Assembly (NCBI GenBank): GCA_964016885.1
Contig: OZ024740.1
Location: 192,076,001-192,140,000, forward strand
Direction: 5' to 3'
From: Eledone cirrhosa
Taxonomy: Eukaryota
Length of the DNA stretch: 64,000 nucleotides
The notes under the pieces are model-generated. The model saw nothing but the letters and a program-made list of their open reading frames with translations, made no database searches and was not told where the DNA came from. Both the position numbers and the translations under genes were made by a program. Within the stretch, counting starts at the first letter, position 1, and every line of letters starts with the position of its first letter. Shown piece by piece: positions 8,077 through 63,325 of the stretch.

Positions 8077-11067
8077 GATTAATATTAAGAAAAATTAATA
8101 ATACGAAGAGTTAAAATTTGAGATTTGAAAATTCAAGTATAAAATTCAGTGTGGGATTTCATAGCAGTTTTCATCTAGGTAGCAACAACAGGTTGACTGC
8201 TGTGTCCCTTTCTGGTAGTGAATGAGAAGTTATTTGGGGTGTGGGTTATTTTATAAAGGTCAGATTTAGCAATCGTCAACTGGCCAGCTGCTGGTCAGTG
8301 AGGGGGTGGAAGCAATATACATACACATATCTTCCTGTGGTGGGTAGGATAGTGGAGCGTGATAGAAAGGGATTTAGTGCACTTACACCTATATATACAC
8401 ACATACCTTCATCCACACATACATACATATGCATATACATATACATATATATATATATATATATATACATATACACACATACATACACACACACATACAT
8501 ATACATACACACATACACACACACACATATATACACATACACACACATATATATATATACACACACACACATATATATACATACACATACATCCAGATAC
8601 ACACATACATACACACACACACACACACGCACACACAATACATATATCCACATGCACACACATACACACACACACATATACACATACATACACCCACACA
8701 GAAATGGCCTCCAAACATATATATATATACATACATACACATATATTTTTTTCCATAATATAAGAAGTTAGGACGGTAAAATTAAAATACAAGTCATTCT
8801 GATCACATTGAGTTCTTCATGTAGATTGGGCCCCGCAACCGACAGTGGTGAATTCTGTGTGCGCATATATATATAGATATATGTGTGTGCACGTGCAGGG
8901 TTTGACATGGATGTGTTGGTCACACAAAGGCATGGTCTGTCAACGAATAAACCTGATTCTACAGAATTGGTCTCTGGTCTTTAATAGTAGTGATTCCGTG
9001 CGTATGTGTGTTTATATTTTATGACAATTCTATTGGGGTGATAACCCGTTTAGTTTTGGTTTAAATTTGTTAAGGAATAGATTTTCTTTGTTTATTCTTT
9101 GTTGCTGTGTGAACGAATCTGAGCACTTGTAGAAGGGGAAGATTTTAAAGTTGGGTAGTGTCATTCCTGCGCAGTTCGCAATATGGCTGCTCAAGGGGAT
9201 TTTTCTTGTGTTAGCGTCCCGGATTTGTTGGCGGTGGATGGTCATTATTTTGCGTAATGAGGTGCCCGTCTGTCCTATGTAGTTGTGTTTGCACCCACCG
9301 CAAGTTATTGCGTAAATCAAGTTCTCCGAGTTGCAGGTGAAATTGTTTTTTACTGTAAATGTTTGGCCATCTTTGAATGTAAATGTTTGTCCTTCAGTGA
9401 GGTAGAGGCACGTTCCACAGTTTGTTCTACCACATTTGGTAACTAGGGTTGAGGATTGGTTTGGGTATATTTGGTCCAGTGAGAATGCGTTTAAGTGATT
9501 TGGGTTGTCTTTTACTTTTAAGGATCTTGTGTGTTTCAAGAATAGACTTCATTTTTACATCTTTAAGTAGGATGGGGAGGTTTTTGTGTAGGTGATAAAA
9601 CATTTCGGTATTTCTGGGGTTGAAAGTGGATACATATGGCAGGGTGTTTAGTGTGGTTTTCTGTTTTGGATTGTTAAGTTGATGGGGATTTAGGTGTTTT
9701 GCCCTGTCTATTCCATTGTTGATTATTTCAAGTGGAAAGGCTCTTAAGATAAGGGTGTCTTTTAGTTCCTTTAGTCTTTGCTCCCGTTTAGGTGGATTTA
9801 CAGTAAAAACAATTTCACCTGCAACTCGGAGAACTTGATTTACGCAATAACTTGCGGTGGGTGCAAACACAACTACATAGGACCGACGGGCACCTCATTA
9901 CGCAAAAGAATGACCATCCACCGCCAACAAATCCGGGACGCTAACACAAGAAAAATCCCCTTGAGCAGCCATATTGCGAACTGCGCAGGAATGACACTAC
10001 CCAACTTTAAAATCTTCCCCTTCTACAAGTGCTCAGATTCGTTCGCACAGCAACAAAGAATAAACAAAGAAAATCTATTCCTTAACAAATTTAAACCAAA
10101 ACTAAACGGGTTATCACCCCAATAGAATTGTCATAAAATATAAACACACATACGCACGGAATCACTACTATTAAAGACCAGAGACCAATTCTGTAGAATC
10201 AGGTTTATTCGTTGACAGACCATGCCTTTGTGTGACCAACACATCCATGTTAAACCCTGCACGTGCACACACATATATCTATATATATATGCGCACACAG
10301 AATTCACCACTGTCGGTTGCGGGGCCCAATCTACATGAAGAACTCAATGTGATCAGAATGACTTGTATTTTAATTTCACTGTCCTAACTTCTTATATTAT
10401 GGAAAAAATATATGTGTATGTATGTATATATATATATGTTTGGAGGCCATTTCTCTGTGTGGGTGTATGTATGTGTATATGTGTGTGTGTGTATGTGTGT
10501 GCATGTGGATGTATGTATTGTGTGTGCGTGTGTGTGTGTGTATGTATGTGTGTATCTGGATGTATGTGTATGTATATATATGTGTGTGTATATATATATG
10601 TTTGTGTATGTGTATATATGTGTGTGTGTGTATGTGTGTATGTATATGTATGTGTGTGTATGTATGTGTGTATATGTATATATATATATATATATATGTA
10701 TATGTATATGTATATGTATGTATGTGTGGATGAAGGTATGTGTGTGTATATATAGGTGTAAGTGCACTAAATCCCTTTCTATCACGCTCCACTATCCTAC
10801 CCACCACAGGAAGATATGTGTATGTATATTGCTTCCACCCCCTCACTGACCAGCAGCTGGCCAGTTGACGATTGCTAAATCTGACCTTTATAAAATAACC
10901 CACACCCCAAATAACTTCTCATTCACTACCAGAAAGGGACACAGCAGTCAACCTGTTGTTGCTATCTAGATGAAAACTGCTATGAAATCCCACAATGAAT
11001 TTTATACTTGAATTTTCAAATCTCAAATTTTAACTCTTCGTATTATTAATTTTTCTTAATATTAATC

Positions 11068-36040: not shown

Positions 36041-38383
<2,343 letters not shown>

Positions 38384-39378: not shown

Positions 39379-39470
39379 GCCCGCATAGCTCAGTCGGTAG
39401 AGCATCAGACTTTTACGATCTATTCTGTGAAGGTATCTCAGGGTCACGGGTTCAAGTCCCTCTGCGGGCG
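39379..39470 (+). tRNA. trnK-UUU: tRNA-Lys(UUU) with 19-nt intron (39416-39434); probably a variant or pseudogene
   Basis: GCCCGCATAGCTCAGTCGGTAGAGCATCAGACTTTTA[cgatctattctgtgaaggt]ATCTCAGGGTCACGGGTTCAAGTCCCTCTGCGGGCG. Perfect acceptor stem; one anticodon-stem and two T-stem mismatches; no oligo-T terminator. Confidence 0.85.
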
Positions 39471-43274: not shown

Positions 43275-43354
<80 letters not shown>

Positions 43355-43358
<4 letters not shown>

Positions 43359-44047
43359 GAATAATCGAGTATCGGAAAATCAGCTCACGAATTAACGATA
43401 AACAAATCCGATATGAGTGGCAGAGGGCTCAATAATTTGGATAAATCAGAGCTATAACTATCGTTAAATTACCAACACATAAATATTATGCCTAAAATCA
43501 CCCGTGCAGCCGAAAAAGAACGACCAGGAAGATTCGGGTCACTCAAATAATATATCAATAAATCAATAATTTAAATGAATGTAAAAAACTTACCCGGACC
43601 CGCTAGAAGGGTGTTAAATCTAGCTTCTTGGGTTTCTGCAATTCCTTAATCCGTTCACTATCAGCCCACATAAAAATATATAAGACTTCTAGGAAAGGAC
43701 TGGACCGGAAGAGCTTTATCAACGGGTTGCGTCCGATAATAAAGAAGTGACCTTTAGCCAGACACGCACATGGTGCCCAGCAAGGGAGATAACCTCTATA
43801 TTAGCGAAAAATTGTCGGTAATGTGGAAATCATGTGGGGGTACAAAATATCACATATCGAATCAGAGTGCTCAATAGAATCGACAAAAAAAATGATCAAT
43901 AAAATTAACTGGTCAATAGCTATGTCTAGAGCTAAATATAATAGAATAATCGAGTATCGGAAAATCAGCTCACAAATTAACGATAAACAAATCCGATATG
44001 AGTGGCAGAGGGCTCAATAATTTGGATAAATCAGAGCTATAACTATC
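43355..44047 (-). mobile_element. 585-bp non-coding unit plus partial second unit, with large hammerhead (43592-43727)
   Basis: Repeat starts at 43355 and 43940. Motif: acccg-TTGATAA-agc..ttcc...ggaa..gca-GAAAC-cc...gg-GTC-cgggt. (TA)n flanks. Confidence 0.75.
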
Positions 44048-44629
44048 ATATATATATAGAGAGATAGATATATGTGTGTATGTTTGTGTGTGTGTGTTTT
44101 ACAGAAACTTAAATCACCAAAAGCCTGCCTAAACGCAAAAACAGAAATGTTCACCAGTTGCCCACACATGAAATAACATTTGCTTTCCAGCTCATATAAA
44201 CTTAACTCACTTTCCTTAACTTACCATTTTATAGACTTCTCATTCAGTTTTACGCATCTTTTATTTTCATGTTTATTTTTATTTTTACTTTACATCCACT
44301 AGTGAACCCCCGCCCCCTGCTTTTTGATTCATTAACTTTATATCTTAACAATTATACATTATTTACATTTATTTTACTTCCCCCTTTTCTTTCACTACCA
44401 GACATCACTTGTCACTTGTGTTTTTAACTCAAGATATTTTACGTTGTCCCTCTGCCTCTTTTATGTATGTATACTTGCGTATATTTTGTACACATTTATT
44501 CATACGGTTGTTTTCTTTATATATGTATGCGTATGTGTGCATGTATGTGTATACGTGTTTGTATATGTATACGAACGCATTCGTATGTGTGCATGTGTGT
44601 GTGTGTGTGCGTTTATGTATATGTATTTT

Positions 44630-44670
<41 letters not shown>

Positions 44671-44729
44671 TCGCGTGCGTGCGTGTAAATAGATGTGCAT
44701 GTATGTATATTGTGTGTATATGTATGTAT

Positions 44730-45323
44730 GTCAGGTCACCAGTTGGTGGTACTGGTAACATGTGTCCCAGTACAGCCTGGTCGGGTCGTTGACGACTAAA
44801 CTGGCAACCACACCAAGTTTTCTTGGTGAGGAGGGTGACTTTGTACATTCCACAGGACTCAAAACAAAACCTGTCAAAGGGCAAAGGAGCTCTTAAGAGT
44901 CAATGGCCATCCAAAATCACCGGGAGAGATGACCCCTTAGCCTTTATCAAGGCAGAATTCTAGGAGAAGGAAAACTCTGATATAACACCTGCAACCCTGA
45001 TTGTATCCAATGATGTTGTTCTTCTTTTTGGTAAATATCATATTGGTTAAGAGAGTGGGACTGGCTTTGTGCAGTGCCTTTGCTCACTATAAAAGCTTCA
45101 TGGTATAGGCATTGCTCTATATATGGATATCTTTCTGCATTTGTCACATGGTAACATGTGCCCAGCACTATGTGTCAATAATTGTCACAAGTATAGTGTT
45201 TGTACCAGAGTTTTCAAGTCGCTGGATGGACTAAAAAGTCACACTCGTTCAGCGCATCGGTAGGGTTCTCCTACATGGATATAAAGTAGTGGCCGTACTC
45301 GAAAACGAGTTGGCAGCTACCAT
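44730..45323 (+). mobile_element. Non-autonomous RTE-derived element, colinear copy
   Basis: RTE-like 5' UTR fused to a C-terminal VCTRVFKSLDGLKSHTRSAH remnant; sits in (TATG)n. Confidence 0.65.
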
Positions 45324-45762
45324 ATGTATGTATGTATGTGTGTGTGTGTATGTATGCTTTTGGGCACGTATTTTTGTCTGTATGTGTACATATATTTATA
45401 TATATGTATGTGTTTATGAGCTTGTTCGCGTATATGCATGTTTTCTACTTTTTATTTATTTTTTATAGTGTTATTTTATATTACAACCCCTCCCACTAAC
45501 TTTCTCTTTGCTTTAATGTTTTTATTATTATCTTATTATTATTTCATTTATTCAGCATATTTTATATTTGTATCGACCTTCCGTCTGACACTGCGTTGAC
45601 TTTAAACACTCCCTTCCCTGTGTATATCACATACATGTATGTGGTTGCGCGTGTCTGTATGTTTATACGTATGCATCCTTTCATCCTTGTATGTATATTT
45701 CAGCGCTTAGTCTCTGAGTCTGTATGTACGCTAACTCCATTATCTTACAATTTCTATTTTCA

Positions 45763-45857
<95 letters not shown>

Positions 45858-45937
45858 ATATGTACACGTAACAGCCGTATGAAGAGAGTGAAATGAAATT
45901 TCGTTTCATTTTTTCCGTTTATATATATATATATATA

Positions 45938-46800
45938 TTAGAATGATCGAGTATCGAAAAATCGGCGTACGAGTTCACGACAAACAAAATTCGATATGAG
46001 CAGCAGAGTGCTCACTGATTTAGATAAATCAGAGCTATAACTATCGTTAAAATACCGTCACACACAAAACAAGTCTATAATCAACCGCACGATCGAAAAT
46101 TTGCGATTACGGAAGATTCGGGACACTCAGATAAAAAGTCTCAATAATTCAATAAATTAAATGAATGTAAAAAGCATACCCGGACCCGCTAGGAAGATGT
46201 TAAATCGAGCTTCTTGGGTTTCTGTAAATCCTTAAACTGCTCCCTATCAGCTCACATGAAAATATATAAGACTTCTAGAATTCAGCGGACAGGAAATTTA
46301 CTTCTTCAACGAGCTTTGTCCAAACGGATAAAATGGCATAACCCAAGCTAAATACGCACATGGAATTCGGGAAGGGAGATAACCTCTACATCCGTGAAAA
46401 CTATTCGAGAAAATGTGGAAATACACATATCGAATAAAAGTGCTCAATAGACATGTTAAAATAAACAGGAGCTATTCATCACTTAATAGAATCGACAAAA
46501 AATGAACAATAAAATTAACTGGTCAATAGCTATGTCTAGAGCTAAATATATTAGAATGATCGAGTATCGAAAAATCGGCGTACGAGTTCACGACAAACAA
46601 AATTCGATATGAGCGGCAGAGTGCTCACTGATTTAGATAAATCAGAGATATAACTATCGTTAAAATACCGTCACACACAAAACAAGTCTATAATCAACCG
46701 CACGATCGAAAATTTGCGATTACAGAAGATTTGGGACACTCAGATAAAAAATCTCAATAATTCAATAAATTAAATGAATGGAAAAAGCATACCCGGACCC
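45938..46800 (-). mobile_element. 613-bp unit plus partial second unit (sister subfamily of the 585-bp unit), large hammerhead 46178-46314
   Basis: Repeat starts at 45938 and 46551. Motif: gctcg-TTGAAGA-a-gtaaat...atttac-a-GAAAC-cc...gg-GTC-cgggt. Confidence 0.75.
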
Positions 46801-50150: not shown

Positions 50151-50186
<36 letters not shown>

Positions 50187-50716
50187 AGTGTAATTTTCTA
50201 CACAAAACGAAGGTTATAGAGAAAATTGAGGTTGGTAATGGCACATGGAATATATAAGAGACAGAATACTTTTTTGTGAAAAAACATAATTTTATAAGGT
50301 AAGGAAATAATAAAGGGTATAAAAAATGACCGGTTTCGATGGGTCTGCAAAAGCCATCTTTTCAAATGTTGATTAATATTAAGAAAAAATAATAATACGA
50401 AGAGTTAAAATTTGAGACTTGAAAATTCAAGTATAAAATTCATTGTGGGAGTTCATAGCAGTTTTCATCTAGGTAGCAACAACAGGTTGACTGCTGTGTC
50501 CCTTTCTGGTAGTGAATGAGAAGTTATTTGGGGTGTGGGTTATTTTATAAAGGTCAGATTTAGCAATCGCCAGCTGCTGGTCAGTGAGGGGTTGGAAGCA
50601 ATATACACACACATATCTTCCTGTGATGGGTAGGAGAGTGGAGCGTGATAGAAAAGGATTTAGTGCACTTACACCTATATATACACACACACCTTCATCC
50701 ACACATACATACATAT

Positions 50717-50757
<41 letters not shown>

Positions 50758-50826
50758 CACACATACATACACACACACATACATATACATACACACATAC
50801 ACACACACACACATATATATACACAT

Positions 50827-50877
<51 letters not shown>

Positions 50878-50916
50878 TATATATACATACACATACATCC
50901 AGATACACACATACAT

Positions 50917-50985
<69 letters not shown>

Positions 50986-51087
50986 CACACACACACCCCC
51001 ACACATACATACACACACACATATATATATACATACACACATACAAACATACACACACACACACATATATATACACACATACACACA

Positions 51088-51118
<31 letters not shown>

Positions 51119-51166
51119 GCATATATATATATATATACACATACGCATACATCCAGATACCCACAT

Positions 51167-51197
<31 letters not shown>

Positions 51198-51602
51198 CAA
51201 TACATACATCCACATGCACACACATACTCACACACACACACACACACACATGCATACACCCACACACAGAGAAATGGCCTCCAAATATATATATATATAT
51301 ATACATACAGACACATATATTTTTTCCATAATATAAGAAGTTGGAGCAGTGAAATTAAAATACAAGTCATTCTGATCACATTGAGTTCTTCATGTAGATT
51401 GGGCCCCGCAACCGACAGTGGTGAATTCTGTGTGCGCATATATATATAGATATATGTGTGTGCACGTGCAGGGTTTAACATGGATGTGTTGGTCACACAA
51501 AGGCATGGTCTGTCAATGAATAAACCTGATTCTACAGAACTGGTCTCTGGTCTTTAATAGTAGTGATTCCGTGCGTATGTGTGTTTATATTTTATGACAA
51601 TT

Positions 51603-53860
51603 CTATTGGGGTGATAACCCGTTTAGTTTTGGTTTAAATTTGTTAAGGAATAGATTTTCTTTGTTTATTCTTTGTTGTTGTGTGAAAGAATCTGAGCACT
51701 TGTAGAAGGGGAAGATTTTAAAGTTGGGTAGTGTCATTCCTGTGCAGTTCGCAATATGGCTGCTCAAGGGGATTTTTCTTGTGTTAGCGTCCCGGATTTG
51801 TTGGCGGTTGATGGTCATTCTTTTGCATAATGAGTGCCCGTCTGTCCTATGTAGTTGTGTTTGCACCCACCGCAAGTTATTGCGTAAATCAAGTTCTCCG
51901 AGTTGCAGGTGAAATTGTTTTTTACTGTAAATGTTTGGCCATCATTGAATGTAAATGTTTGTCCTTCAGTGAGGTAGAGGCACGTTCCACAGTTTGTTCT
52001 ACCACATTTGGTAACTGTAGGGTTGAGGATTGGTTTGGGTATTTTTGGTCCAGTGAGAATGCGTTTAAGTGATTTGGGTTGTCTTTTACTTTTAAGGATC
52101 TTGTGTGTTTCAAGAATAGACTTCATTTTTACATCTTTAAGTAGGATGGGGAGGTTTTTGTGTAGGTGATCAAACATTTCGGTATTTCTGGGGTTGAAAG
52201 TGGATACATATGGCAGGGTGTTTAGTGTGGTTTTCTGTTTTGGATTGTTAAGTTGATGGGGATTTAGGTGTTTTGCCCTGTCTATTCCATTGTTGATTAT
52301 TTCAAGTGGAAAGGCTCTTAAGATAAGGGTGTCTTTTAGTTCCTTTAGTCTTTGCTCCCGTTTAGGTGGATCTGATACTATGGTACATATACGTTTGGCC
52401 AAATTGTAAGGAATGTTAAGTTTTGTATGTTTTGGGTGACTTGATGTGAAAAAGAGGTATTGCTTGGAATCTGTGGGTTTATAGAATATATCTGTATCTA
52501 ATTTCCCGTCTATTACAGAGATGAGAATATCCAAGAAGGCTAATTCCTTAGGATTGGATTCCATTGTGAATTGTATGTTATTATCTATGTTGTTTATCAT
52601 GTTTTTAAACGTAGTAAGTGAGTTCATGTCTTCTTGCCATAGGATAAAGCAGTCGTCTAGATATCTTTTCCAATTGGCTTTGAGGTGTGTGTGGAAAGAG
52701 TCTCCAAATAAGAGAAGGGACTGACTGTATATTTGTTGTTCATGGAATCCCATGACTAGGTTGGCATATGTGGGTGCTACTTTCGTGCCCATTGCCGTAC
52801 CTGATACTTGTCTGTATGTTGAACCATTGAATGTGAAGTAGTTATTTTGTAGGATAAAGCGGAGTCCGTCAGTGATAAAATCTGTGTTGATGCGTGTCGG
52901 TATTTCTGATGGGTGTGTGTTAAGCCAGTATTGGACTGCTGTTATTCCATAGTTGTGAGGTATGTTTGTGTAGAGGTTTATTACGTCAAAGGAGACAAGA
53001 ATTGTATTTGCACTTACTGTTTTAGGGAGGTGTTTCAGCATGTCAAGGTCATCTCGTATGTAGCTCTGTATATGTTGTAGAAAGGGTTTCAGTAGGATGT
53101 CCAGAAAGTTGCTAAGTCTGTGGGTTTCACATGTAGGGCCTGCTATAATTGGCCTGAGTTTTAGGTCTTCTGGTGGTGTTAGTTCAATGTAATTGTTGGT
53201 TGAGGTGTCACATGCATCGTTTATGGGTTTACATTTGTGAAGTTTCGGTAAGCCGTAAAAAGAGCTTGTATTGCATTTGAAGTGGCTTATATAGTTAAAC
53301 TCTTTTGTGGTTAAGCTGTTGCGGTATTTATTCAGTAAGGTCAAAAGGTTCCCCATTGTTTTGGTGTGTTTGTAGTTTTCTGTTTTTTCATAGTATGTGT
53401 TGTTTTCTAAAATGTTAAGTGCGAGGGTTCTATAGTAGTCCGTATTCATAATCACAACAGTACTGCCTTTATCGGCTTCTTTGATAGTTATCTCAGGGTT
53501 GTTTCTAAGTGTGAATAATTCTTCCCATTCGTGTGTAGATAGGTTTGATTTCGTGTGTTTATTTGTAATTTTTTCATAGGGAAAGTTGGTGATGTGTTCG
53601 CAGTACGTGTCCAGTGCTTTATTTCTTCCCTTTTGTGGGCAGAAATTGCTTTTATTTCTAACCAGTGATTCGTCTTCAGTGTTGGTGTCGTTGTGGAAGA
53701 ATTCCGTTAGTCGCAGCTTTCGGCAGTATTCCATGATGTCATCCTTCATTTCGGGGAAGTTTGGTTTACGTGGTGTAGGTGTAAATTTCAGGCCCTTACT
53801 TAAAATGTTGATTTGTGTGTTGGTTAGAGGTGTCTTTGAGAGGTTGATTATTTTTGGTTT
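51603..53860 (-). CDS. Penelope-like reverse transcriptase plus GIY-YIG endonuclease (1-nt frameshift near 51835)
   Basis: KIINLS...[79 protein letters not shown]...YIGQT. The copies at 9030 and 9778 show the intact C-terminus. Confidence 0.9.
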
Positions 53861-54490
53861 CTCCTGAGGGGGGGGGCCATCGAGTATCCTGGTATTTCAG
53901 GCTTTTCCCTAAAAAAGGAATGTAGTTTTGTGTGTGATTATATTTTGTTGGTCTGTTGCGTGTGGGTCTGTAGCTTGTTGTTTCATGAGGGTGAATGTGA
54001 TGGTGGGGGTGGTATGTGTTGTGGTTGTTGATGAGCAAGGGTTCTGTTGTTGGTTCATGTGGTCTGGGTGCGTTATTTCTGTGGTACAGAGTGTTGAGGC
54101 TGGGGGGTTGTCTTTTGTTGGATTGAGGGTGATGTCTGGTGTGGTTGTGGGTAAGTTCTGTTGTGATTTCAAGTGGCCTGGGTGGATTTCTTCTGAGGAA
54201 TGTGGTGTGTGTGTTGTGAGTTGGATCTATGTTATTTCGTCGTTGGTTTATGTAGGGGGCATTTCTACGGAAACCTGTGTTGTGGTGGTTGGGTGTGTTT
54301 CTTTTGGTGTAGTTGGCCGTATTTGGTTTGTGTTGGTGGGGGATGTGCCTGTGGTTAGTGTGTGTTGGGTTTGGTGGTGTAAATGTGTCTGTTGTAGTTC
54401 TTGTTATGTTCAAATGCTTTATAAAGGGGTTACCTGTTTGGTGCGTCCTTTTAAAGTCTTCTTCATATTCGAGGAACCAGTTTTCGGATT
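53796..54490 (-). CDS. 5'-truncated upstream ORF (N-terminal region) of the Penelope element, His/Thr/Asn/Pro-rich
   Basis: Open frame [11 protein letters not shown]...NYIPFLGK, overlapping the RT frame out of phase. Confidence 0.5.
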
Positions 54491-54655
54491 TTTCTGGATG
54501 TATGCGTATGTGTATATATATATATATATGCGTGTGTGTGTGTGTGTGTGTATATATATGTGTGTGTATGTGTGTATATATATGTGTGTGTGTGTGTGTG
54601 TATGTTTGTATGTGTGTATGTATATATATATGTGTGTGTGTATGTATGTGTGGGG

Positions 54656-54765
<110 letters not shown>

Positions 54766-54796
54766 GTGTATCTGGATGTATGTGTATGTATATATA

Positions 54797-54851
<55 letters not shown>

Positions 54852-54924
54852 ATGTATGTGTATATATATGTGTGTGTGTGTGTATGTGTGTATGTATATG
54901 TATGTGTGTGTGTATGTATGTGTG

Positions 54925-54967
<43 letters not shown>

Positions 54968-55463
54968 GTATATGTATGTATGTGTGGATGAAGGTATGTG
55001 TGTATATATAGGTGTAAGTGCACTAAATCCTTTTCTATCACGCTCCACTCTCCTACCCATCACAGGAAGATATGTGTGTGTATATTGCTTCCACTCCCTC
55101 ACTGACCAGCAGCTGGCGATTGCTAAATCTGACCTTTATAAAATAACCCACACCCCAAATAACTTCTCATTCACTACCAGAAAGGGACACAGCAGTCAAC
55201 CTGTTGTTGCTACCTAGATGAAAACTGCTATGAAATCCCACAATGAATTTTATACTTGAATTTTCAAGTCTCAAATTTTAACTCTTCGTATTATTAATTT
55301 TTCTTAATATTAATCAACATTTGAAAAGATGGCTTTTGCAGACCCATCGAAACCGGTCATTTTTTATACCCTTTATTATTTCCTTACCTTATAAAATTAT
55401 GTTTTTTCACAAAAAAGTATTCTGTCTCTTATATATTCCATGTGCCATTACCAACCTCAATTT

Positions 55464-55499
<36 letters not shown>

Positions 55500-55519
55500 A
55501 TTAGAATTGGTGCTCTGAA

Positions 55520-58636: not shown

Positions 58637-61600
58637 ATTATTATTATTATTATTATTGTTCTTTGAGCCTCAGTCATTGATGTGATTTGACTGGAAAGTT
58701 TGTTGATATGAATATCAAGCCACTACCTGCAGCCTCAGATATTCAGGACGCATCGCAGGGTTCTTGCTGTTCCCAGCAAGCCTGCCTTTAGAAGTGTTCC
58801 AAAAAGCGGGTCGCGACTAATTTTCTTTAACCATCCTTGAAAACTCTTTGAGATAGTAGCTAGTGCACCTATGACAATCGGGACCACTTTGACTTCATGG
58901 CAGTTCCAAATCCTTTTTACCTCCAACTTTAAGTCCTGGTCTCGGTTAATTTTCTCCCTCTCCTTCTCCTGCACTCTCGTCTCGTGTCGAATGGGCAGGC
59001 TACATCTACAATCAGGCACGATCTTTTTTCCTTGTCCAAAACCAGCAGGTCAGACATATTGTGTTCCAGTTTCCTGTCCGACTGTATCCTAAAATCCCAC
59101 AGCACCTTCACCTGATCGTTTTCTATCACCGACTCTGACTTCTACTCATACCGCTACTCAGATTGTGGTAAATTGTTTACTTTGCATTGGTGCCAGTGGA
59201 TCACCCTCATCACATCATGTCTCCAGCCTTTATAGTGAGTCTGGGCTAGGTGTTTACACTCCGATACAATGTGAGCCACCATCTCCTCTCTCTCCACAGA
59301 TCCTGCTATGTGGGCTAGACTCCTCCTCGGAAATATGGTGCTTCAGCCATTTCGTTTTGAGGGCCTGCTCGTGCGCAGCCATTACCATTCCTTCTGTAGC
59401 TTTCTCAACCAGTTCCATGTCTGTGGATCTCTGAATTCCGTTTTCTCAAAGAAGGTACTATGAAGGGATTTTTCATGAAGGTTGCTCTTTCTCCTTGTTG
59501 TTATTTACTCCTTGGATATCCCCTGGTCTATTGTCCTCTCCTTCAGTACAATTCTGTGCATTGGCTTCTTCTTATAGGTCACGTATTTGTGTAGGTTGTT
59601 TATCTCCATCTGAACACAGTCCTCTATGCTCATAAGACCTCTTCCACCTTCAGATCTCCTTGAGTAGAGTCTATCGACATCACTCCTCTTGTGGAACATG
59701 TTGTAGATAGGCAATAGCTTCCTAGTCTTCCTATCCATTTCTTTTTGTTCAGCAACATTCCATCTCAGAATTCCCGCACTGTACCTAATAATAGACACAG
59801 CTCATGAATTTACTGCACTTATGGCATTCCTGCTGTTCAGATGTGACTTCAATACGCTCCTTATTCTCCGAATGTATTCAGATCTTATCAATTCCTTCGT
59901 TTTTTTGTTATTGATGTCATCAGCCTCTAGAATACCCAAATACTTGTATACTTCTTCAGTGTCAATTTCCTTTATCATCTCACCTGTTGGTACCTGGATT
60001 CCGTTGCTTCTGCTCAATTTACACCTCTTCATCCCTAGGACACCACCCTTACTAATACCAAATTGCATACATATATCATTGCTGAAAATACGGACAGTGT
60101 CAACAAGCACATCAAACTCCTTCTCATTCTTCCCGAAGAGCTTAAGTTCGTCCATGAAGAGGAGGTGATTGATGTTAAGCTCTCACTTTCGCAACTTGTT
60201 TCCTGCTTTCACTTTTCGCAGTATAATGGTCAGGGGCATCAGGGCAATGACAAACAACAGAGGGGACGAGCTATCTCCCTGGAAGATAACTCTCTTGATC
60301 TTCACGCCTCCCAAGGATTCTCCAGCTGATGTTAACTCTGTTTTCCAGGACTTCATACTTTTGCTCAACAACTGTCTGATATTATCTGCCACCTTGAAGA
60401 TCTCTAGGCCTTTGGTGATCCAGTGTGTCTCCGCTTGCGATTTCCTCATTACCATCTTATCAATAAGTAACTGGTCCGTTGTACCATGGGACTTCTTTCG
60501 GCATCCTTTCTGTTCGTCCGGTAACAAGTTGGTTGTGTGGAGGTGATGGTAGATATCCTCAGACACAATGCTTGTCAACAGTTTCCACATTACGGACAGG
60601 CATGTGATAGGTCTATTGTTGGTAATATCATTACCCTTGATGCAGTCTTTCATTACCAGAACTGTGGAACCTTTTGTCAACCACTCCGGTACCTCACCTG
60701 ACATCAAGCAGTCATTGACCAAGGTTGTCAGTTTCGGGTGGAGGGATGTTATATTTTTAATCCAATACCTCTGCACACCATCTGAGCCTGGGGATTTCCA
60801 GTTGGTTAGTTTTTTGGCCTGCACCTTAAGAGTTTCAAGTGTGATACTCAAATCAGTTTGTTGGTGTGCCTGTTTACTAATTCCTTTTGTACTGTCTCAA
60901 TCCACACTGTCTGGTCATTATGTTTAACATCCTGCTCCCATATTCCTCTCCAGAATGTCTTAGTTTGTCCCGCATCATGGATCAAGTTGTTGCCTCTTTC
61001 TTTCCCTTCAAGCTGTCCAAACAGCATCTTCTGGTTGTTGTCGAACATGCGGTTCTCTCTATACTGACTGACTCTGCTCTCGTATCGCCTAATTTTTGCA
61101 CTCTTTGCTATAATGCGTTGCTTCAGTTCCTCTATGATAATATTTAGCCTTTTTCTCCTAGTCTTGTACTTTATTTCCAGTCTATTTTTAGTGTCTATAT
61201 TTTTTAGTGTCCCATTCAGTAGGGACTCAAGCTTTCCAATGTCACTTCTCATATCGCTGATTTGACCATTCAGTCGTTTCTTACACCAAGGTTCTGATCT
61301 TTCTTGTTGTTGTTTCCTCTCGCTTTTATACCAAGTAGTTTCCTCACCGTATTTGCTGTCGCTTTGAGGATATTGTTGCACTGGTGAAGGCTCCTCACCT
61401 CAAGGTATGGGATGACTTTGTTTACCTTAGTTGTTTCTTTTAACTTGTTCCTGTCTACAAATCTTAGGTTCATAAGTTTCCCACTATCATTGTTCATTTC
61501 ATCTACCACTAAGTTTAGGATATTAACCAAATCTTGTCCTAGCCCGTCAGCATTCATCTCCTCAATGGCCGTATATTTGTTTCAGGTATAATAATATAAT

Positions 61601-62090
61601 AATTTCAGCATTCAGATCATTGTTTGCTTCAGATGGTTCCTCCGTTCTCTCAACCTGTTCACCTTCATTTCCCACTGGCTCGTTTGCCTGGTATACTCCA
61701 CTCTCCATTTCCAAGCTAATCTCTCTGCTCAGTTCCTCCAGTTCCAGCTCGCTTATCCGCCCATTAGTTCTTATTACCCGAGCCTGCCCGGACACATTTT
61801 GCTCATCTAATTTAAATAGACCAATCTCGTTCCAGATGTTATGCATCCGTTTCGTATAGCCTTTTTCCTTGGGGTTACTCTTCAGGTAACATTGCATAAC
61901 AGTTATATTCAATTCTTTCGTCCAGTTGATTCTGGTCCCTTTCCTTCTTCTTCCTCCGACACCAGCTTTATTTGGTTGAAAGCCAGGTCCCTGCTGCTGA
62001 GCCAGGGAGCACCTGCTGGGGGAGATTCTGTCACATGACATTCCAGTCTCCACTTCACCGTTATTCGAACTGTTTAGGTTCAACATTGAA
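58631..62090 (-). mobile_element. Decayed R4/Dong-clade non-LTR retrotransposon (RT plus restriction-like endonuclease) with (TAA)n tail
   Basis: N-terminal WTKELN..VMQCY.KS.P..KGY.KRM; RT NWKSPGSDG, RPITCL, EQKGC, IFQGDS.SPLLF, FMDELKL, YKYLG; RLE KVLWDFRIQSDR...D...IVDVACP...K...PIVIGALA. (TAA)n at 58631-58657. Confidence 0.9.
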
Positions 62091-63325
62091 ACCCTTTTCC
62101 TTTAACTCTTTTGTTACCGCATTTCTAAAGAAAGACACTTCATATGGTGTTTCGAACATAACTTAAGGTATCTAAAACAAAATTGTGCTGGAAGGTTTTG
62201 GGATAAAAATATGATTTTCGAGGATTGGTGAATGTATGGTTACATAACCACGGGTGATTTGATCACCCTCGGTGATTTTAGCATGGCCCTATCACGTTGT
62301 AGACGAACATAAATAAACAAACAAACAAATAGGTAAACACCCCAAAAAATAAGCATAAGTTTCATTGTAATGTAATGTTCGAATGTCTGACTAAGTTTGT
62401 TTGCTTGTCTGTCTGTCTGTTTGCTTTTCTTTTCTTTTTTCTTTTCTTACGTTTTTCGTCGCTGTTGTGCAGTTTTGATTTTGATTTTTGATTTTTTGAT
62501 TTTCTGACCGGGTCATCAAATCAGTCTATTTATATCTTTTGATGCCTTCCTCATTTAGTGGGAACACTACGATGCATGTCTTAGCAGGAGGTAGTGGGAG
62601 AGAATATCGGTGGTAGCAATAATGAAGCAGTGGTGCTGGTGATGTGCTAGTAGTACTTAGCAGGATGTAGTGCGAGAGAATAGTGGCGGTAGCGATAATG
62701 AGGCAGTGGTGGTGGTGATGTGATCGTAGTACTGTAGTGATGGTGTTGAAGTTGAAGTACAAATAGAAGTTGAGGTAACTTGACTAGTGTTTTTGGCGTG
62801 GTAGTGGTAATGTTGGTGGTGGTGTTGGTGGTGAAATGATTTGCTTGTCTGTCCACTTAGCCATTTTTCTCTTTTTCGACTATAACATTTCTGATCCAAA
62901 ATTAAATATTAAATTGTGGGGCCCTATGCCGTAATGTGATGTGTTGTCGCTTGCTGAGAGAAAACACTGTAAAATTATACTTCATTTGTAATAAGAATTA
63001 TTCTATCACAGTTGTTTTAAATAAGTAAAAATCAAAAACTTACAGGGGCGATTCCATAACGATATATATCCACCATGTTCGTTTTCTTCCCTATCTTTCT
63101 TCCCTATTTCTTCCTTATTATTATTATTATTATTGTTATTATTATTATTGGTCTAAGCGGACGTATTTTGCTCGCTCACAGTAAGTCGCTTTGTTTGCCT
63201 GTTAAATTTATTTGTTGTTAAATATTTCTTGTTGTGTAAGGGATATAAGCCCTTAGACTTTGCTCCGTGAAGGGGAAAGTATAATATTTGGGCCTTTTGG
63301 ACCAAATATTTGAACTTTTTTTTAC

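Follow-up and report, generated by a model that had tools for sequence, protein, structure and literature searches.

We begin by considering two neighbouring tandem arrays on the minus strand of a 64,000-nucleotide stretch of Eledone cirrhosa DNA (the window), described in an earlier note as sister elements that share an unusually large hammerhead. The question is to what kind of element the arrays belong, and whether the hammerhead is a working part of it. We consider it probable that the arrays are copies of a dispersed tandem element that codes for no protein and has a type I hammerhead fold that covaries. This element is likely a non-LTR retrozyme of the non-autonomous Penelope-like kind, and its RNA is predicted to cleave itself at a single site in each unit.

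Two arrays and the family to which they belong

The first array, a subfamily A insertion (43355..44047, minus strand), consists of one unit of 585 bp and a 5'-truncated partial unit of 108 bp, and its fixed 3' end at 43355 abuts a (TA)n run (43280..43354) that is the putative target. The second, a subfamily B insertion (45938..46800, minus strand), has one unit of 613 bp and a partial unit of 250 bp, with its fixed 3' end at 45938 against another presumed (TA)n target (45920..45937). At the period of 585, 107 of 108 overlapping bases are identical, and at the period of 613, 244 of 250. The A and B families are 80% identical, which bears out the proposal that the arrays are diverged homologues. 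The 585-bp period given for the first array is real, but the family unit is ~624 bp, and the window copy has lost 39 bp between two 8-bp direct repeats, at 43878..43879.

A first look through the genome gives 2,201 candidates for B and 2,714 for A; a shared 24-mer has 706 exact matches, and an 18-mer from the unit 3' end has 2,622. Searching the genome with a pattern of core motifs and spacing finds 3,498 matches, against 13 for the reversed control. These matches include more distant families, and most are homologous across the whole unit. The superfamily is one of ~580-630-bp non-coding elements, spread genome-wide, in which subfamilies A-D are 78-93% alike. Identity within subfamily C is about 98.5-99%, and because of this (~98.5%) we regard that subfamily as young. 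The longest ATG frame in four reference units is 35-47 aa, so the unit does not code for protein; a coding remnant in its 5' third, of which there was a slight hint, was dropped. Variants of the element are also present in contigs of two sequencing runs of unrecorded kind, which has no bearing on expression.

Sixty loci were taken to examine the insertions, and after removal of 6 duplicates all 54 distinct loci have one fixed end against a TA run while the other end varies. The fixed end is the 3' end of the minus-strand RNA, and the variable end is its 5' end. When copies were selected by their 3' end, four or more TA repeats were present at 42 of 46 ends, and the TA run was interrupted at the other four. 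The combination of 5' truncation, partial tandem and fixed 3' end is also present in 48 insertions picked by their 3' end. Any target-site duplication would be hidden by the (TA)n flanks. The arrays range from partial units and dimers to at least 39 kb. A satellite of this size, made of ~608-bp hammerhead units of the A-D family, is located at G000:C1:81,709,000-81,748,000 (L193-L195). Inverted 5' pieces are found in two of the three long C-type arrays fetched (L196, L197). Within young arrays the units differ by 0-2 bases, compared with 2-5 to outside copies, a pattern that would fit either repeated copying of one template or local amplification; units of older dimers are 3-7 differences apart, barely closer than outside copies (6-8). 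Since the fixed 3' end on (TA)n, the variable 5' end, the tandems and the inverted 5' pieces all match, the element very probably belongs to the Penelope-like class.

The hammerhead fold and a predicted pseudoknot

In array A the type I hammerhead covers 136 nt (43592..43727, minus strand), with the predicted cut between 43597 and 43596. Stem I pairs ACCCG (43727-43723) with CGGGU (43596-43592). Between these strands are the core UUGAUAA (43722-43716, with a U3-A8 pair), a stem II of 77 nt (43714-43638) with extra A's at 43715 and 43637, the GAAA (43636-43633), and a stem III, ACCC/GGGU, with a bulge and a hairpin. In array B the hammerhead covers 137 nt (46178..46314, minus strand) and the predicted cut is between 46183 and 46182; stem I is GCUCG/CGGGU (46314-46310 / 46182-46178), the core is UUGAAGA (46309-46303, with U3·G8), stem II spans 46301-46224 and the GAAA starts from 46222. 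A remnant of a second hammerhead (GGGUC and the stem I 3' strand) is retained at 46791..46800. The motifs named earlier, including the two differing cores, are all in their places on the minus strand of both arrays.

For window copy A the hammerhead is the unconstrained minimum-energy fold (-41.9 kcal/mol, with a z of -2.47 and equally good folds in 2 of 200 shuffles). This is not the case for window copy B, where z is 0.04, so the earlier view that both arrays fold as a ~136-nt hammerhead on this strand is correct for A without constraint, but for B only at a cost of +1.2 kcal/mol. Private mutations in window copy B weaken its hammerhead; without constraint, L068, which represents the B family, adopts the hammerhead, as do most subfamily representatives. 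The RNAalifold consensus has the same three-way junction with stem I open, and a circle from cut to cut folds modestly better than shuffles (z -2.1, 40 shuffles). Rfam finds no hammerhead in the window, either at the gathering score or at E up to 10, and none in six loci.

Within A-D, the positions U4 G5 A6, A9, GAAA, A15.1-U16.1 and H17 are nearly invariant while N7 is free, with all four bases occurring there. The same catalytic positions are fixed by the search pattern in the divergent families. Position 8, which the pattern does not constrain, is either A or G in 100 of 100 matches listed (counted by eye). The 3-8 pair is U3-A8 in 68 of 154 copies and a U3·G8 wobble in the other 86 (~56%), and our literature search found no activity data for a hammerhead with this wobble and no paper with C3U/G8A data. 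The G10.1-C11.1 pair is invariant, and the stem II base is flanked on both sides by one extra base (A); for the one 3' of C11.1, carried by all copies, the search found no published counterpart or activity data. Stem II is 71-80 nt long across the family. Stem III is invariant among 15 aligned sequences and therefore gives no covariation signal.

The next question is "do the paired positions change together?" In the alignment of these 15 sequences (13 subfamily representatives and the two window copies), 90.8% of cells pair, and there are 23 double changes against 10.5±2.5 in shuffles that ignore relatedness, with 0 of 500 shuffles reaching this number. At the stem II base, counted over 26 clusters and placed from motif anchors rather than from the model alignment, 140 of 156 positions are paired against 112.8 expected (0 of 5,000 shuffles), while the corresponding test for stem I gives no significant excess (116 of 130 against 114.8, p 0.25). 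A model built on A-D matches 13 of 13 distant loci and 0 of 4 loci of other families; its fitted alignment, which leans to the model, has 104 double changes against 36.8. An alignment of genomic copies, the check proposed for the fold, has therefore found both a conserved core and pairing. The stem II base indeed differs between A and B and stays paired by two-sided changes. The compensatory change claimed for stem I has to be withdrawn, as it consists of two one-sided changes to G·U wobble.

At what level is the fold maintained? Private mutations hit 7 of 1,402 core cells and 435 of 66,420 non-core cells (p=0.61). Because they strike core and non-core alike, decay is neutral after insertion, and it is on the propagating RNA that selection for the fold acts. 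The suggestion of an expanded hammerhead under selection is supported by the covariation with this specification of level.

A second interaction, absent from the earlier note, involves a 4-mer 2-6 nt 5' of stem I that is complementary to four bases of the first internal loop in stem II. On the minus strand the two segments are GGAC at 43731..43734 and GUCC at 43702..43705 in A, and GGAC at 46318..46321 and GUCC at 46287..46290 in B. Its forms are GGAC/GUCC (85 copies), GGAA/UUCC (18), GAAC/GUUC (~21) and the wobble GGAC/GUUC (5). The helix was first spotted in A-D; the distant families, fetched afterwards, have GAAC/GUUC and up to 7 bp, and neither strand is part of the search pattern. It is kept in 21 of 22 untruncated clusters (four of the 26 are truncated before the 5' flank and were left out), and a count based on the alignment is too low because MAFFT shifts the C-family pseudoknot by one column. 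From these sequence changes we predict a covarying pseudoknot as the tertiary contact between stem I and stem II, and it is in stem II and in this helix that the true two-sided changes sit. Such a pseudoknot would explain the large size of the hammerhead. The long stem II would start as a normal helix of 6-8 bp, its terminal loop would be replaced by an internal loop docking on the 5' flank of stem I, and beyond this loop the stem would continue into a long capping hairpin.

The alternative of a Helitron-like rolling-circle DNA element or a DNA-level satellite, with the RNA fold a relic or a matter of chance, can be weighed at this point. Helitrons have a fixed 5' TC end and a 3' CTRR end. The head-to-tail tandems, the satellite of at least 39 kb and the CTA-N at the end of A-C are in keeping with such an origin, but the element has its 3' end fixed and its 5' end variable, the divergent families have no CTRR end, and inverted 5' pieces are present. 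Furthermore, the covariation comes with many G·U pairs on one strand only, and the plus strands of the window copies fold no better than shuffles. This alternative is largely refuted and we give it almost no credence. We proceed with the Penelope-like retrozyme.

The same layout is seen in a family of separate sequence, E (L018, L071, L090, L096, L180, L229-L258, L301-L330), made of non-coding units of 520-570 bp, with frequent 5' inversions and a 20-mer with 9,418 exact genome matches. Family E has no significant homology to A-D (best E 0.55). Its core is a canonical C3-G8, its stem III is palindromic and its stem II is ~50 nt long. In the corresponding places it has one additional base at either side of stem II, a stem II base of 6 bp that covaries, and a predicted GAGAAU/AUUCUC pseudoknot.

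Further hammerheads were met along the way. In the window, a separate 449-bp tandem element in TA repeats (37317-38190, plus strand) has a small canonical type I hammerhead at ~37593-37635, with core CUGACGA and a palindromic stem III (by eye), that is degraded in the second copy. Elsewhere, type I hammerheads were seen in L196 (near 5138), L165 (near 801), L029, L129 and L149 (near 998), four of the five with a long stem II and one a short motif downstream of a GIY-YIG frame. A long stem II seems common in the Eledone cirrhosa genome.

The 5' ends, the rival readings and a candidate helper

We turn our attention to the 5' ends of the copies. For this purpose we use 48 insertions chosen only by their 3' end, with one top-hit array left out. 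Of 53 passes across the interval +1..+30 downstream of the predicted cut, 13 end there; in the remaining 30-nt windows the figure is 35 of 852 (Fisher p 9e-7). The mapping of 5' ends against the cut site that had been suggested has produced a cluster just downstream of it. The result is the same when two windows in which stops cannot be seen are dropped (35 of 760, by hand), and the most TATA-rich window, 60-89 nt before the cut, has 2 of 33. The stops concentrate at +8..+30, with seven at +14 and almost none at +1, and a second, smaller cluster (5 of 38 at -59..-30) is seen at the base of stem II, on its 3' side. The post-cut cluster repeats in D (10 of 30 partial rows), in C (7 of 38) and in family E (6 of 30 matches, several as inversion points, by eye). 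Among the top hits of A and of B it shows up only weakly, with 4 of 25 short partial rows and 4 of 35, respectively, and in many copies the sequence continues past the predicted cut site. The B array itself, as had been pointed out, begins at 46800, 5 nt upstream of a predicted cut between 46796 and 46795, but this is not a cleavage end, because an RNA cut there could not template those 5 nt. It also lies upstream of the cut and thus outside the downstream cluster of the family.

The post-cut 5' ends could be explained by cleavage followed by trimming to a TA match, or, in part or entirely, by stalling of the reverse transcriptase (RT) at structure. An element of the same class is therefore conceivable in which the hammerhead cleaves barely or not at all and is kept for protein binding or packaging, the 5' hot spot being due to RT stalling and TA microhomology. 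The U3·G8 core of over half the copies, the frequent read-through and the second stop cluster at stem II speak for this reading, as does an anole Penelope-like element in which the hammerhead is reportedly dispensable for insertion in vitro, cutting needs protein and priming is internal (PMC11167929). Against it, the catalytic positions do not change whereas N7 does, and only bases able to pair with U3 occur at position 8. The covarying contact between stem I and stem II is a feature tied to fast cleavage in PMC3088659, and the stops before the 5-bp stem I outnumber those at the far stronger stem II. We judge a hammerhead of this barely cleaving kind to be unlikely, and keep self-cleavage as the preferred reading.

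Splicing provides another potential explanation, with a donor at +4, a lariat or intron circle, and an RT that halts at the branch. The motif overlapping stem I in copy A, GUAAGU (43588..43593, minus strand), resembles a splice donor, and GUAAGU, GUGAGU, GUAUGC and GUAUGA occur in A-D. A pyrimidine tract with UAG at its end is found 6 nt ahead of the cut, and Penelope 5'-UTR introns overlap the pLTR and the hammerhead. The GU, however, is dictated by stem I pairing, the divergent families lose the +5 G (GUAAAU, GUAACU, GUGAAU, GUUUGU), and the upstream UAG belongs to a covarying hairpin that changes in those families. The splice donor reported just after the cut is therefore present as a motif in A-D but doubtful in function, and splicing as the force that shapes this RNA is highly improbable. 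A 9-nt mini-exon around the cut was also considered and dropped.

Returning to the self-cutting retrozyme, the following cycle can be proposed. Tandem transcripts would be cut, probably slowly or partly, to give linear RNAs one unit (~620 nt) long and probably circles of the same length. A Penelope-like RT/GIY-YIG protein acting as helper would nick (TA)n and prime inside the RNA at a fixed site, after which comes AUAU. Copying would run for a variable distance, often for more than one unit, and would often stop where the RNA had been cleaved, the end then being trimmed back to the closest TA microhomology (~+14). A broader proposal, which we offer tentatively and rate somewhat below even, is that the genome harbours a lineage-wide retrozyme class whose hammerhead is of an undescribed subtype (an extra base at either side of the stem II base, a pseudoknotted long stem II, and U3·G8 tolerated), which would cleave as a monomer in vivo and yield ~620-nt circles, the 5' ends being a fossil record of cleavage in the Penelope cycle.

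A possible helper can be seen in the window itself. At 50180-55510 (minus strand) there is a Neptune-like Penelope element whose RT is at 51815-53896 and whose GIY-YIG end is frameshifted; it also has an inverted 5' pLTR copy and, at ~50370-50323 (minus strand), a minimal U3-A8 hammerhead. Its family has 13,903 candidates with many near-identical 777-aa frames, and it is very young and apparently recently active. The family ends on (TA)n, with two alternative 3' ends 35 nt apart and ATATA after both, which parallels the unit junction of the A-D family; the 3' end of family E resembles that of the Neptune-like element. The unit profile has no match on this element, on 30 loci of its family or among the weak hits elsewhere, in a parent search that covered one autonomous family, the others being seen as fragments. 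With no detectable sequence in common with the unit, the Neptune-like element is a candidate helper only. The window also contains, on the minus strand, a fragment of this same Neptune-like family at 9030-9894 (GIY-YIG, below the Pfam cut-off) and a broken LINE-type RT at 59800-62100, and, on the plus strand at 39379-39470, a tRNA-like match (Rfam 45.3 bits) with a 20-nt insert in the anticodon loop, which is either an intron-bearing tRNA gene or a SINE head.

Comparison with known systems

Besides the sources cited below, the literature compared took in PMC7761336 and PMC13282606. The element class is already known, whereas the hammerhead architecture and the genomic trace of post-cut 5' ends appear to be new. 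No description of the A-D architecture or family was found in the literature searched; PMC5785218, on Penelope-associated hammerhead variants, and the supplements of PMC4209133 and PMC3088659 lie outside that scope and may show similar variants.

The closest likeness in organisation is to the metazoan non-LTR retrozymes (PMC7229834; bioRxiv 10.64898/2026.07.22.740005), which are also non-coding, low-GC tandem units with one type I hammerhead each, present as thousands of dispersed copies, from monomers to long arrays, alongside Penelope-like elements. Their units are 51-972 bp in the preprint, a range that includes the A-D unit, and the preprint derives retrozymes from pLTRs. The hammerheads differ: those of the metazoan retrozymes have short helices and loop-loop contacts, while the A-D family has a stem II of 71-80 nt, a bulge and hairpin in stem III, a U3 core and a predicted internal-loop pseudoknot. 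Metazoan retrozymes make circles (PMC7229834), which are only inferred for the A-D family. As to activity, cleavage is retained in an axolotl motif whose stem II base is U·U (PMC7229834), and of nine Xenopus retrozyme dimers eight are without cleavage and one is cleaved (bioRxiv 10.64898/2026.07.22.740005).

In insertion anatomy, Neptune, Naiad and the non-autonomous Chlamys/MRC1 (PMC8557442) share the partial tandems, the 5' truncation, the inverted 5' pieces and the (TA)n targets that mask target duplications; the A-D family differs in having no ORF and no homology found to the autonomous family tested in the genome. The pLTR hammerheads of Penelope (PMC4209133) resemble the A-D motif in the 5-bp helix I, the longer helix II, the base between 9 and 10.1, the invariant G10.1-C11.1 and the U3-A8 variant. 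The animal motifs among them are minimal, have a weak or palindromic helix III and work as dimers. In the A-D hammerhead, by contrast, helix III is stable, a second A is inserted ahead of G12, more than half of the copies have U3·G8, and there is a long extension. A circular template has been proposed for Penelope-like elements (PMC4209133). Of the animal motifs that have been assayed, most cleave poorly, and one is dispensable in vitro. The role of the hammerhead in these elements is directly testable here because of the thousands of copies, the young subfamily and the post-cut 5' ends in several families. The fold is also invisible to Rfam, so that ribozyme counts in animal genomes likely miss long-stem variants.

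The predicted tertiary contact has its counterpart in the pseudoknotted hammerheads of PMC3088659, where a Watson-Crick contact of 4-7 bp likewise joins the stem I and stem II regions. According to that study U3-A8 is active and ~40% of hammerheads use pseudoknots; among its tested examples are a type II motif from a metagenome and the C10 motif of vertebrates, and repetitive type I motifs are left out of two of its tally panels. In the A-D family, a retroelement of high copy number, it is an internal loop within a long stem II that would make the contact, and the natural pairs of U3-A8 and U3·G8 together with the three pseudoknot sequences provide ready-made tests of structure and function.
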